Shown here: positions 30,043-47,594 of the stretch, piece by piece
Layout of the letters: the number at the start of each line of letters is the position of its first letter
Numbering within the stretch: the stretch's first letter is position 1
Origin: an uncultured Heliomicrobium sp.
GTDB taxonomy: Bacteria; Acidobacteriota; Blastocatellia; RBC074
DNA: 64,000 bases
Reading direction: 5' to 3'
Assembly: GCA_964470555.1 (NCBI GenBank)
Contig: CAYYDG010000004.1
Location: 33,053-97,052, forward strand
The notes under the pieces: generated by a model
What the model was told of the DNA's origin: nothing
The model's database searches: none
The model's input: only the letters and a program-made list of their open reading frames with translations
Position numbers and translations under genes: made by a program

Positions 30043-30477
30043 TCAGCCAGTATACCAAAGCCGCAGCCGTCTTTCGTCGCCGCCAAGATCGTGGATGGTG
30101 ACCTGCACCGCGCCCGGAATGCCAAACGTGCCCAACCGCTCCGGCCATTCGATCAGCACGACGGCGTTTGGTTCGTTGAGCATTTCTTCCAATCCAAGCT
30201 CGCGCAATTCGTCAGCACCACCTTCAATGCGGTACAGGTCAAGATGATAAAGCCGCATTCGCCCTTCGTGTTCGTTGACCAGGGTGAACGTCGGGCTGTT
30301 GACCTCCGCCGGATCAATGTCGAGTCCAGCGGCGATACCTTTGGCAAAAACCGTTTTGCCCGCGCCCAAATCGCCTTCGAGCAAAAAGACCGTCGGCTCG
30401 GTGATTGCTTCGCCGATGCTATAGGCCAGTTCAAAGGTTTCTTCGGCAGATTTTGTCAGGAACGTTTTTGTCAGCAT
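30043..30477 (-). CDS. tsaE: tRNA t6A37 threonylcarbamoyladenosine biosynthesis protein TsaE
   Basis: P-loop GDLGAGKT and TsaE C-terminal motifs ([16 protein letters not shown]). The 17-codon F/L-rich N-terminal extension in the ORF track is encoded by an A/T palindrome and was rejected. Confidence 0.8.
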
Positions 30478-30478
30478 C

Positions 30479-30575
30479 AAAATCAAAAGGCAAAAGGCAA
30501 ATATCAAAAAGCAAAAGTGAAGAAGCAAGTTCCGCCTTTTTGCTTTTACATTTTTGATATTTGCCTTTTGATTTC
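30479..30575. repeat. A/T-rich extended imperfect palindrome (~35-bp arms) at nnr stop / tsaE start
   Basis: Arms AATCAAAAGGCAAA(AGGCAA)ATATCAAAAAGCAAAAG and CTTTTGCTTTTACATTTTTGATATTTGCCTTTTGATT. The right arm encodes the last 10 aa of Nnr. Confidence 0.5.
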
Positions 30576-32210
30576 TCCTCGCTCTGCGTCGCCGCCGATT
30601 TGCAGAATCGCTTCGCTCAAATTGGCGATGATGTCTGAAGCTATCATCGAACGCATCCCCAACTTACCGGCGGCCAGGTCTCCGGCCAATCCGTGCAGAT
30701 AAACTCCGGCGATGGTTGCGCCGAGCGCATCTTTTCGCCCAAGCCAATCTGGCGGCGATTGAGCCAGCAAACCTGCGATCAATCCGGTCAGCACATCGCC
30801 CGAACCCGCAGTCGCCATTCCGGCGTTGCCGGTTGGGTTCACATAAACATTTCCGTCAGGAGCGGCGATCAAACTTCGACTGCCTTTCAGGACAGTGATG
30901 AGGTGATGTTGGGTGGCGAATTCACGCGCGACGCCGATGCGGTCGGTTTGCACGTCAGCATTCGTCTTGCCAATCAGCCGCGCCATTTCGCCCGGATGCG
31001 GTGTGACGATGATCGGCAATTCGTCCGAGCCTTTCAGTTCCTCTGGCCACGGAGCCAGCGCGTTCAATCCATCGGCATCAATGACCATCGGAGCCGTTCG
31101 CCGTTCGACCAATTCGCGGACAAAGGCTCTCGAGCTTTCTTCGTTGGAAGAAAGCCCCGGCCCAATGGCGATGACCGTTTTCTTTTCTGCAAGCTGCAAG
31201 GCGTGGCCGGTGGCTTCCTGAGCAATCGCGCCGTCAAAGGTTTCCGCCAACGCTTCGGTCATCACTTCGGGATTGGCTTGCGTGACCAACAAACTCAGAG
31301 CCGATTTTGCCGTCGCCACTGTTACCAACCCGGCTCCGGCGCGCAACACGCTTTCAGCAGAAAGCGCTGCTGCGCCGGTCTTTCCGCGCGAGCCAGCAAT
31401 CAACAACACATCACCGACAGAGTTTTTGTGAGCGTAAGATGTTCGGCGCGAATTGTTGAGCCACCTTTTAATTTCCAGTTCTTCGACAAGTTCAAGCTGC
31501 GAACCAATTTCGTGAATCAACCAGCCCGGCGTTCCGATAGGCGCAACCACAAGTTTTCCGTTCGATTCGCAAACTGGCGAAAGTACGTTGCCAAGCTTCG
31601 GCGCCGTGAAGGAAACAGTTAAATCTGCGTGGACGTGCAAATTGGCAGAATCGCCGCTGTCCGACGAAATTCCTGAAGGAATGTCCACAGCGATGACTGC
31701 CGCAAATCGAGAGTCATCTTCGACATTCCTGTTCAGAGTTCTGATGGCTTGAGCGTATAACCCTTCTGCTTGTCTGGTCAGACCTGTACCCAATAACGCA
31801 TCAATGAAAAAATTCGGTGTGTAAGTAAACCAAGCTTTTTCTTCTGTTGTAATCTCCTCGAAAAAGAGTTTGCCACTTCCAAAGCCGACTATTGGTTCAC
31901 CAAATAACTTCACGGCTTCAAAATTTGCTCTCGCCTCACCTTTTGTGTCTTCGACTTTTCCAAACAAAAAAACTCTGACCGTTGCCCCGCGCAAAAAAAG
32001 AAGCCGAGCAATGACGGCTCCGTCTCCACCATTATTTCCCTTGCCGCAGAAAACTGCGAATGATTTGTTTTCGACCGAGCCGTAATTTTCAATGATTGCT
32101 TCAACCACGCGGCTGCCCGCCGTTTCCATCAGCGTCGCATACGGAATGCCGCAGCGTTCGACAGTCAGCCGGTCAAGCTCTCGCATTTGTTGGGCGGTCA
32201 GAATTTTCAT
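30546..32210 (-). CDS. nnr: Bifunctional NAD(P)H-hydrate epimerase / ADP-dependent dehydratase (YjeF N+C)
   Basis: YjeF-N domain with FCGKGNNGGDG; YjeF-C carbohydrate-kinase-like domain with GSRGKTGAA and GSGDVLTG. Confidence 0.9.
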   Translation of the reverse strand: MKILTAQQMRELDRLTVERCGIPYATLMETAGSRVVEAIIENYGSVENKSFAVFCGKGNNGGDGAVIARLLFLRGATVRVFLFGKVEDTKGEARANFEAVKLFGEPIVGFGSGKLFFEEITTEEKAWFTYTPNFFIDALLGTGLTRQAEGLYAQAIRTLNRNVEDDSRFAAVIAVDIPSGISSDSGDSANLHVHADLTVSFTAPKLGNVLSPVCESNGKLVVAPIGTPGWLIHEIGSQLELVEELEIKRWLNNSRRTSYAHKNSVGDVLLIAGSRGKTGAAALSAESVLRAGAGLVTVATAKSALSLLVTQANPEVMTEALAETFDGAIAQEATGHALQLAEKKTVIAIGPGLSSNEESSRAFVRELVERRTAPMVIDADGLNALAPWPEELKGSDELPIIVTPHPGEMARLIGKTNADVQTDRIGVAREFATQHHLITVLKGSRSLIAAPDGNVYVNPTGNAGMATAGSGDVLTGLIAGLLAQSPPDWLGRKDALGATIAGVYLHGLAGDLAAGKLGMRSMIASDIIANLSEAILQIGGDAERGEIKRQISKM

Positions 32211-32328
32211 GGTTATACGTTTTTGGATTCGATGGCGGTGATGCTTGAGAATCGTTTGAAGTCGGGTTTGTTGGAAGCCAGGTTGGCGCTGAAGACCAAA
32301 ATGTTCGAATCAACGAGAAAGGTCATCG

Positions 32329-32610
32329 CTAACGATCCTCGTAGATGCTTTCTCGTCTGACATCGTCAATTGTCAGGCCGGGAGTGTCTGCGCTGTGACT
32401 GTTCGCCCAATCCAGGTAAGCCTGGGCCAATTCCTCCGGCGTAGCGGTTTCATAAAGCGGCCTTTCCTCTTTCAGGTGGCTGCCATTTTCAACCAGCGGG
32501 CGGATCAACGAATCAACCGTCACGCCTTGCAAAGCAGCTTTCTCTTTCAGCCGTTCCAGCGTCAAGGCTGTGTTTTGATCTACTTCGACCGTAACCATTT
32601 GTGGAGTCAT
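32329..32610 (-). CDS. Hypothetical small protein, possible ribbon-helix-helix (antitoxin-like) fold
   Basis: 93 aa; VTVEVDQNTALTLERLKEKAALQGVTVDSLIR resembles an RHH beta-alpha-alpha pattern. No partner toxin ORF adjacent. Confidence 0.3.
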   Translation of the reverse strand: MTPQMVTVEVDQNTALTLERLKEKAALQGVTVDSLIRPLVENGSHLKEERPLYETATPEELAQAYLDWANSHSADTPGLTIDDVRRESIYEDR

Positions 32611-42249: not shown

Positions 42250-42639
42250 ATGCGAAAGATTTTGTCGGCAATTTTCGTGACAGCCGTTTGTTGGTCAGCC
42301 TTCTGGCTTGGCGGCGGGGCTGTTAGTTACGGACAACAAACAACTGAACAGTTTATCCCGATGGGCAAATCTCCGGGCGTGTCAGGCAAATCCGCCTGGA
42401 TGGGAGAGATCGAACAGGTTGACGAGCCGAATCGCTCGATCACAGTCAAAATGGATTCGGCCAGCAAAACCATCAAGCTGACCGACAAAACACGAATCTG
42501 GCTGGATCGGTCGAAACTAAGGTCGAGCAGCCTCAAAGGTAGCTTCGCCGACTTGAAAAAAGGCAGCAAAGTCGAGGTCAAATACGTCAAAGACCACGAA
42601 TCTGAAGCTGAGTGGATCAAGATCGAAGTCGCCCAATAA
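42250..42639 (+). CDS. Hypothetical small secreted protein (129 aa)
   Basis: Signal peptide (MRKILSAIFVTAVCWSAFWLGGGA). Lies 17 nt downstream of the peroxidase gene and upstream of a strong terminator. Confidence 0.5.
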   Translation: MRKILSAIFVTAVCWSAFWLGGGAVSYGQQTTEQFIPMGKSPGVSGKSAWMGEIEQVDEPNRSITVKMDSASKTIKLTDKTRIWLDRSKLRSSSLKGSFADLKKGSKVEVKYVKDHESEAEWIKIEVAQ

Positions 42640-42641
42640 GC

Positions 42642-42689
42642 AAACGAAAAGCCGATAGAGTTGTTGAAGACTCTTTCGGCTTTTCGTTT
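42642..42689. terminator. Bidirectional rho-independent terminator between convergent genes
   Basis: 14-bp perfect stem AAACGAAAAGCCGA/TCGGCTTTTCGTTT, which gives U-tracts on both strands. Confidence 0.55.
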
Positions 42690-42713
42690 GGTGATGTTTA
42701 TTGATCGTTTGTC

Positions 42714-47549: not shown

Positions 47550-47594
47550 CCGGTCAAAGTGAAACAAGCTGGCAGCTCGTTTCACTTTGACCGG
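47550..47594. terminator. Rho-independent terminator (16-bp perfect stem), mainly for the minus-strand M28 gene
   Basis: CCGGTCAAAGTGAAAC/GTTTCACTTTGACCGG; on the minus strand followed by UUUUAUCUC. Sits 7 nt after the M28 stop. Confidence 0.55.

Follow-up and report, generated by a model that had tools for sequence, protein, structure and literature searches.

The 64-kb stretch analyzed here (contig CAYYDG010000004.1, from an assembly named as an uncultured Heliomicrobium sp.; hereafter the window) carries two neighboring genes on the minus strand: nnr (30546..32210), encoding a bifunctional NAD(P)H-hydrate repair enzyme of 554 aa with the Pfam domains YjeF_N and Carb_kinase, and tsaE (30043..30477), encoding a 144-aa protein with the Pfam domain TsaE from an ATG at 30475-30477. 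At their junction, where 68 nt separate the nnr stop from the tsaE ATG, lies a palindromic element of ~95 bp (30479..30575) with the ends AAAATCAAAAGG ... CCTTTTGATTTC. An initial annotation of the window, which did not give the strand of the two genes, had described an A/T-rich palindrome of ~95 nt at this place, and our measurements agree with that description. The arms (30480-30516 and 30538-30574) are 37 nt each, 84% complementary, and separated by a 21-nt spacer, and they form the longest short-range inverted repeat found in a scan of the whole window. GC content is 0.35-0.40 over the palindrome vs. 0.55-0.63 in the flanks. The gene-sense strand folds at -39.7 kcal/mol (z -5.1) and the opposite strand at -36.3 kcal/mol (z -5.3), and for both strands 0 of 200 dinucleotide shuffles were as stable.

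The long arm (30479..30516) reads AAAT, CAAAAGG, CAAAAGG, CAAATAT, CAAAAAG, and CAAAA, with two CAAAAGG units before CAAATAT, and the short arm (30538..30574) has one CAAAAGG unit. On the gene-sense strand, the short arm is the A-rich 5′ arm and contains the nnr stop 30 nt inside it, while the long arm is the U-rich 3′ arm and has its outer end 3 nt upstream of the ATG of tsaE. The 19-mer AAAAGGCAAATATCAAAAA is found exactly once in each arm, the chance expectation being 0.05 matches, and Tandem Repeats Finder (TRF) reports one arm as a period-7 array of CAAAAGG with 4.9 copies (30484-30517), the sole heptad array in the window. A hidden Markov model (HMM) of the arm matches at 30474-30521 (+) and 30576-30547 (-). 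Compared with the long-form copies L050, L020, and L026 of the repeat family described below, the center (30517..30537) appears to be a shortened family center: it keeps GGCGGAAC and TTGCTTCTTC (sense strand) and is missing both the loop rich in A/T and, from the GC clamp, the CCGCCC half. Searches with the 19-mer (up to 3 mismatches), the arm HMM, the inverted-repeat scan, and TRF gave no further family copy in the 64-kb window.

The element contributes to one of the flanking proteins and misleads the annotation of the other. The last codons of nnr, E-I-K-R-Q-I-S-K-M and the TAA stop (30546..30575, minus strand; stop at 30546-30548), are encoded by the short arm, as the initial annotation had recognized, and the resulting tail (Nnr residues 546-554) lies outside Carb_kinase, which ends at residue 530 of 554. 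For tsaE, gene callers agree on the ATG at 30477, and the N termini of orthologous TsaE proteins align there; the 161-aa open reading frame (ORF) starting at TTG 30528 is read-through of the element, so the earlier explanation of its 17-codon extension as translated palindrome holds as well.

Palindromes can arise as assembler artefacts, and several contigs indeed end inside the element. Four Logan contigs terminate only a few nucleotides before the end of the long arm, as is expected where a de Bruijn graph is broken by a repeat that a sample contains more than once. The palindrome at nnr–tsaE is nevertheless not an assembly artefact, since the identical junction is found in one ENA contig and in three independent Logan contigs, each from its own run. 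Two other lineages moreover have near-identical elements, seen in contigs from JGI, ENA, and Logan, with the flanking genes intact on both sides, and the chance that we are looking at a misassembled or chimeric sequence is negligible.

A dispersed repeat family in Blastocatellia

We scanned one genome per species for exact occurrences of the arm 19-mer, which gave more than 108 loci among the matches listed. About half of these came from metagenome-assembled genomes (MAGs) of Blastocatellia/Acidobacteriota, several per genome, and there the 19-mer always occurred in the same context, the arm HMM finding an inverted partner arm at most 170 nt away. Pairing the arms with the HMM yielded at least ~49 full elements, 85-155 bp long, in at least 15 of these MAGs. 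The search for copies elsewhere had been suggested with the initial annotation, and its outcome makes the fallback offered there, a miniature inserted element, essentially right: copies stand at dozens of unrelated junctions. Among the matches listed, at least 10 elements were found in CADECP01, at least 7 in JAYSTY01, at least 5 each in JAYTCQ01 and JANRKX01, at least 4 each in JAEUQN01, CAZXZU01, and CAYXVZ01, and at least 3 each in OY969418 and JAYVRW01. Beyond the absence of a second copy in the window, the arm HMM found essentially no additional copy in 340 kb flanking the seeded copies, which points to a density of roughly 1 per 100 kb or less and to tens of copies per genome. Searching the literature by subject and by strings of its sequence, we found no account of the family, which is apparently undescribed.

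The other half of the listed matches were lone occurrences in unrelated organisms, where they fell in coding or A/T-rich DNA, and do not belong to the family. Those in Clostridium, Bacillales, Bacteroidota, and other groups were rejected as single coding or chance matches, as were nine matches in viral contigs, all without the family context. In Clostridium MAGs, the 19-mer lies in a conserved permease gene (L025, L034, L056, L065, L070, L081, L084, L091, L094, L098, and L109) and encodes ...GKRQISKI..., identical to the peptide that Nnr receives from the arm, a chance match unrelated to the family. Palindromes that are partly family-like occur in two MAGs assigned to Proteobacteria, at L073:1640-1790 (Thiobacillus UBA2186, on a 3.6-kb contig) and L110:3480-3600, and could represent contaminating contigs, distant subfamilies, or horizontal spread. 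Ten loci that carry the repeat (L010, L014, L021, L033, L052, L062, L067, L082, L101, and L111) come from MAGs titled uncultured Heliobacteriaceae or Heliomicrobium (binchicken third-party, TPA, assemblies). These MAGs have a GC content of 52-59%, their loci are orthologous to those of Blastocatellia/Acidobacteria MAGs (L082 to L043 and L111 to L058) with flank identities of 84-89%, and the labels look wrong.

Family members share a defined anatomy. The ends read (R)AAATCAAAAGG ... CCTTTTGATTT(Y), i.e., AAATC...GATTT, and form terminal inverted repeats with arms of ~35 nt, each an array of 7-nt units: one to three CAAAAGG, then CAAATAT, CAAAAAG/T, and CAAAAGK. Of the 26 elements that could be scored, 21 have exactly one CAAAAGG unit more in one arm than in the other, and the element therefore has a polarity. 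The full-form center consists of GGKCGGCACTT, an A/T-rich stretch, and CTTCCG(CCC/AAT) and is variable among copies; the shorter copies, including that of the window (GGCGGAAC-TTGCTTCTTC), look like internal deletions of it. All elements fold stably on both strands (median dG -36 kcal/mol, z about -7). At the gathering threshold, Rfam gave no match for the window palindrome, and at relaxed thresholds only generic models of miRNA-precursor hairpins, with 15-29 bits vs. thresholds of 45-211. A GGAG beside the short arm was considered as possibly belonging to the element or contributing to a split Shine–Dalgarno sequence and rejected: it accompanies few copies only, and at nnr it comes from conserved E-R-G codons.

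The copies occupy tight gene junctions. Where both neighbors were called, 31 junctions were co-directional, 6 convergent, and 3 divergent, and the element usually fills the junction, with typical distances of 0-12 nt to the stop upstream of it and 3-20 nt to the start downstream. The flanking genes are ordinary chromosomal ones: meaB/mce, an ABC permease and its ATPase, acrB, purQ, sodA, HDAC, and Ser/Thr kinases. The polarity of the element showed no bias with respect to transcription (7 vs. 8). Among the ~45 copies examined, the window copy is unusual solely in its ~30-nt overlap with coding sequence.

Family members could in principle be alike through common design, as bidirectional intrinsic terminators made of an A-tract, a GC stem, and a U-tract. 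Long-form copies do have a GGGCGG...CCGCCC clamp between the A-rich 5′ arm and the T-rich 3′ arm, and six copies lie between convergent genes. However, the copies have in common ~35 nt of specific arm sequence, the end sequences, and the center motifs, which argues for common descent instead of convergence; most of them lie inside apparent operons (ABC permease/ATPase, meaB/mce, and nnr/tsaE); and loops of 20-60 nt make poor terminator geometry. The combination of a GC-rich stem and a U-tract is not seen in the window copy, which is without the CCGCCC half of the clamp, and a scan of 30479-30575 found no terminator-like or promoter-like site. Judged from the missing clamp and the scan, a terminator role for this copy is unlikely, and as an explanation of the whole family we regard terminator design as highly improbable.

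History of the nnr–tsaE and meaB–mce junctions

The distribution of the arm-encoded protein tail shows where the window copy is shared. Three of the 120 closest Nnr homologues end in GEIKRQISKM, namely the window protein, P0009, and P0035; other homologues have tails of equal length, e.g., GRTNTISTI, GQRLAISRL, and GEINTISKI. The DNA encoding P0009 (L113/L114) and P0035 (L115/L116) carries the same element at the same position. In contrast, the orthologous junctions of five relatives are element-free, L117 and L118 having a spacer of 6-42 nt and L119-L121 an nnr stop that overlaps the tsaE start (ATC TGATG TCA). In a metagenome scan with a TsaE alignment, 1 of 80 loci was filled, the L115 contig again, and the TGATG overlap was the common state. 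Because the relatives L117-L121 and 79 of the 80 metagenomic loci are empty, the element is a derived acquisition at nnr–tsaE in a narrow clade made up of the window lineage and two others. An ancestral element that was lost elsewhere was rejected as unparsimonious given the same empty loci.

Comparison of filled and empty sites shows a replacement. The native nnr tail of ~9 codons and the first tsaE codons are exchanged at the filled site (MSSIPTGQF... vs. MLTKTF/MHKEEF...), with no duplication, and the arm-encoded Nnr tail keeps the native length and the ending I-S-(K/T)-(I/L/M). The native tail DNA of L119 matches the short arm at 21 of 27 nt, a score reached by 0 of ~540 in-frame gene windows and by 0.15% of shuffles, and for L121 and L120 the shuffle fraction is ~2%; as L119 was picked for this comparison since its peptide looked similar, the resemblance is suggestive only. 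The native tail DNA in question (GAAATAAACACAATCTCAAAGATCTGA) lies at L119:4620-4647 and L121:11620-11647 and resembles the short arm more than other in-frame windows do. Such a resemblance could reflect either insertion at an end-like sequence or the survival only of an event that preserved the tail.

A parallel is found at meaB–mce, where L064, L088, and L131 have a filled site and L132 and L133 an empty one. The element is flush with the mce ATG at the filled sites, and the first mce codons differ from those at the empty sites; at both junctions, the element thus replaces native sequence rather than interrupting it. The empty meaB–mce spacers (L132:2449-2535 and L133:2458-2575) share CTGAAAATCCTGTC and have GAAAATC...GATTTT just upstream of the ATG. 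In L132, ...GATTTT stands directly before the mce ATG, like the element termini GAAAATC / GATTTT, and the spacer also has short CAGGATT/AATCCTG inverted repeats. In some relatives (proteins P0152, P0174, P0205, P0218, and P0232; ~460 aa), MeaB is fused with the methylmalonyl-CoA epimerase (glyoxalase fold), so the junction of the two genes is naturally very tight.

Other repeats occupy the nnr–tsaE junction in other Acidobacteria. At L154:1100-1200, a different palindrome of ~62 nt with CGCAAAG-type units lies between the nnr TAA and the tsaE GTG. L153:1010-1200 shares this outer palindrome and has a second one nested at its apex, with TAAAATC-heptad arms around a GC hairpin (CCGGAGTCGC...CTCCGG) and no obvious duplication. 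At L163:520-600 and L166:1115-1200, tandem CCCGAAA heptads (four to five units) lie inside the 5′ end of the tsaE frame and would give a P/E/T-rich N-terminal extension.

These comparisons bear on what the hairpin does at nnr–tsaE. The initial annotation had seen in it a junction-specific structure that attenuates readthrough, sequesters the tsaE start, or stabilizes the upstream message. Such consequences may still occur as side effects, as the transcript is predicted to fold and to leave the region ahead of the start mostly paired: the probability of being unpaired over tsaE positions -20..-1 is 0.19-0.29 at filled junctions vs. 0.49-0.77 at empty ones, the AUG itself being largely free. The scan of the region gave neither a terminator-like nor a promoter-like site, and a device specific to this junction fails on the two observations that the initial annotation had named as refuting it, orthologous loci that are empty and many copies at unrelated ones. 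For a regulatory hairpin evolved in place, be it an attenuator, a terminator, or a start-codon sequestrator, one can cite the stable fold, its cover of the region upstream of the tsaE AUG, and its conservation in three lineages; the same sequence, however, stands at dozens of unrelated junctions and is absent from the orthologous one in nearly all relatives, the window copy has no GC clamp or terminator-like site, and no Rfam family matches. On this comparative evidence, an origin in place is already refuted by the distribution of the family and is extremely improbable, while a local effect of the hairpin may still exist.

Such an effect could take the form of translational coupling. No Shine–Dalgarno-like sequence was found upstream of the tsaE AUG, here or at the empty sites. 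On the nnr–tsaE mRNA, a hairpin of about -36 to -40 kcal/mol would extend over the region upstream of the tsaE AUG, and a ribosome finishing nnr would melt its 5′ arm, as the nnr stop sits inside that arm. The freed U-rich 3′ arm would then allow re-initiation or fresh 30S binding at tsaE. The translation of tsaE would in this way stay dependent on that of nnr, approximating the coupling by the ancestral overlap, and the preserved coupling may explain why the insertion was tolerated.

A few other features of the window were recorded. Between a GFO_IDH oxidoreductase gene and nnr (32213-32610, minus strand) lie two small ORFs of 93 and 37 aa without a Pfam match, which are not in the syntenic loci L113 and L115 and look like a small lineage-specific insertion. 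Two further short palindromes are found at 47550-47594 (22-nt arms, 95% complementary, 1-nt spacer; CCGGTCAAAGTGAAACAAGCTG/...) and at 42636-42695 (26-nt arms, 88% complementary, 8-nt loop), the latter with a terminator-like look.

Conservation, proposed mobility, and possible roles

The identity of the element among the three filled nnr–tsaE lineages is 91-98%; at third codon positions, the same lineages have identities of 57% (nnr) and 74-82% (tsaE). Across five other sets of orthologous sites, identity is 83-100% for the arms, 71-97% for the coding flanks, and 47-100% (the lowest) for the centers, the arms mostly equaling or exceeding the flanks. We observed no covariation between the arms: the mean complementarity score of an arm with its own partner was 20.0 vs. 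21.4 across elements (permutation p 0.995), slightly lower because of the n/n+1 unit asymmetry. The arms thus appear to be conserved as sequence, not as pairing, which makes protein recognition a better explanation than selection for an RNA helix. Around the nnr–tsaE element, sliding-window identity is mosaic. The nnr gene of the window is nearer to the empty-type L117 (80% at the nucleotide level; 85% aa identity for P0003), whereas its tsaE and element are nearer to L113/L115 (86% and 84% nt), a pattern suggestive of a recombination breakpoint close to the nnr 3′ end.

From these results, we consider it about 80% probable that the palindrome is one copy of a dispersed Blastocatellia family of palindromic repeats, consisting of tolerated or co-opted mobile-type DNA that replaced a native coupled junction. 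As the filled and empty sites show, a copy replaced the native nnr/tsaE boundary in the ancestor of the narrow clade, removing the TGATG overlap, the last ~9 nnr codons, and the first few tsaE codons. Nnr now takes its tail and stop from the short arm, and the long arm stops just ahead of the tsaE ATG. In origin, the element would be non-autonomous, and its arms would be read by a protein, either a mobilizing enzyme or a host DNA/RNA-binding factor.

Several observations weigh against this reading. The first concern the conservation estimates. All copies and the five orthologous sets were found through the perfectly conserved 19-mer, which inflates the conservation of the arms; the nnr–tsaE set alone came from a search by protein, in which the identical Nnr tail had selected for the coding arm. 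High identity around that element may in part come from a recombination tract. The others concern mobility. No transposase-like gene was found near the copies, either by ORF clustering at 54 family loci or in the 340 kb of flanking DNA, and the 54 loci have no recurrent neighbor gene beyond those of orthologous loci and a Ser/Thr kinase family. Nor did 33 elements show a target-site duplication (TSD) at offsets of 0-9 nt from both ends with k = 2-9, the best results of the scan being 6 of 33 for k = 2 and 3 of 33 for k = 3, and the two filled/empty comparisons, nnr–tsaE and meaB–mce, gave none either. Because neither a TSD nor a transposase was found, we infer mobility from dispersal and from presence or absence at orthologous sites only. 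Copies within one genome differ greatly in their centers and give no sign of recent transposition, and the translational-coupling step is a thermodynamic prediction.

The conservation could alternatively reflect a host function of the kind known for REP/BIME or ERIC elements. The heptad arms would then be the binding sites of a DNA- or RNA-binding protein of the host, or else the hairpin would be an intercistronic signal for mRNA processing or stabilization, with the copies under purifying selection and that at nnr–tsaE tuning the ratio of the two products. This would account for arms whose conservation at orthologous sites exceeds that of synonymous positions and mostly equals or exceeds that of the coding flanks while the centers drift, for the occupation of the same sites in species whose coding flanks are 71-93% identical, for the prevalence of co-directional and convergent junctions over divergent ones (31:6:3), and for conservation at the level of sequence. 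Random orientation with respect to transcription, however, counts against an RNA signal that is strand-specific, the element is missing from most relatives at both nnr–tsaE and meaB–mce, conservation estimates are biased by the 19-mer ascertainment, and the binding protein is putative. We hold a host function as a tentative alternative, with odds short of even; it is compatible with a mobile origin and not exclusive of the reading as a tolerated or co-opted insertion.

Relation to known repeats and significance

Cyanobacterial STRR consist of tandem 7-nt units in intergenic DNA and resemble the family in both respects. They differ in that their units simply repeat in tandem and do not form two inverted arrays on either side of a conserved center, and their sequences and hosts are unrelated. 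In REP, BIME, and REPIN elements, sequence conservation comes from recognition by a protein; a REPIN spans ~100 bp with two inverted units, and REPs near stop codons can affect the translation of the upstream gene. The family shares with them the character of extragenic palindromic repeats, the lack of a TSD, the long retention at orthologous sites, and the conservation as sequence. REP units, however, are hairpins of 20-40 bp tagged with GTAG or CGTC (PMC3733652), whereas the arms of the family are direct heptad arrays, not self-complementary, and without GTAG or CGTC at their ends. REP copies number in the hundreds and those of the family in the tens, and no gene for a RAYT (Y1 transposase) was found in the 340 kb flanking the copies.

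ERIC/IRU elements come closest to the family in lifestyle. Like the family, ERIC elements reportedly have low to moderate copy numbers and exist as shorter and longer variants formed by internal deletion or insertion. The review by Delihas (PMC2229807) covers small bacterial palindromic repeats, which the family resembles in behavior, including ERIC/IRU, MITEs (miniature transposable elements with inverted repeats), and Rickettsia palindromic elements (RPE). Like the family, ERIC/IRU (~127 bp) are imperfect palindromes of ~100-130 bp in transcribed intergenic regions, often in operons and in either orientation, and can be co-transcribed with their neighbors, whereby the fate of the mRNA may be affected (PMC2229807). 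Both are highly conserved between species and differ in site occupancy, with no apparent relationship in sequence. ERIC is listed with a TSD and 5′-TA-3′ termini (PMC2229807, Table 1), neither of which was found in the family, it has no counterpart to heptad arms with n vs. n+1 units, and its host phylum differs. Sequence homology with ERIC is unlikely, as judged from the host phylum and the heptad arms.

The MITEs Correia/NEMIS (Neisseria) and RUP (Streptococcus pneumoniae) resemble the family in being <200 bp, A+T-rich, and noncoding, in having terminal inverted repeats and transcripts with long stem-loops, in being dispersed in intergenic DNA, and in having sites that are filled in some strains or species and empty in others; Correia, too, has long and short forms differing by an internal segment (PMC2229807). 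Of the features tabulated for MITEs (PMC2229807, Table 1), the family thus shows small size, A+T-richness, noncoding character, dispersed copies, and terminal inverted repeats and lacks the TSD and the 5′-TA-3′ termini. Whereas MITEs make TSDs and usually have TA termini (PMC2229807), the family ends in AAATC/GATTT with no TSD at any offset, and clustering at the 54 loci found no insertion sequence with matching ends near the copies. RPE, of 105-146 bp, can become in-frame, translated parts of conserved protein genes, with an effect that seems neutral (PMC2229807), and Nnr residues 546-554 with the stop, encoded by an arm in three lineages, are a likeness in coding. Unlike RPE, which insert internally in ORFs and are translated as a whole, the family contributes one arm only, at this one site among ~45 copies, and sequence and host are unrelated.

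We therefore class the family as new within a broad known kind, unusual in its heptad-array arms, the n/n+1 asymmetry, the absence of a TSD, and the replacement type of insertion. A bolder proposal makes it a distinct repeat type: a class-wide junction element with heptad arms that, leaving no TSD, inserts into tight junctions of operons or into the apices of hairpins by replacing end-like sequence, is held by sequence-level constraint implying a protein dedicated to it (a recombinase, an enzyme of the HUH or RAYT type, or a host reader of 7-bp repeats), and is able to donate a working C-terminal peptide and to re-create stop/start coupling. It draws on the resemblance of the native L119 tail to the arm, on GAAAATC...GATTTT at the empty meaB–mce sites, and on the unrelated palindromic or heptad repeats, one of them nested, at nnr–tsaE in other Acidobacteria. 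We regard it as speculative and, taken whole, rather unlikely.

What looked like a special regulatory hairpin becomes a generic genome feature, and a false lead is removed. The repeat family belongs to a major but poorly studied soil phylum; its elements break short-read contigs and create spurious N-terminal ORF extensions, as at tsaE, and they could serve as lineage markers. The conservation of the arm sequence raises the question of which protein reads the CAAAAGG heptads. The nnr–tsaE junction itself provides a clean natural example in which a palindromic repeat replaces an overlapping stop/start junction and supplies a substitute protein tail.

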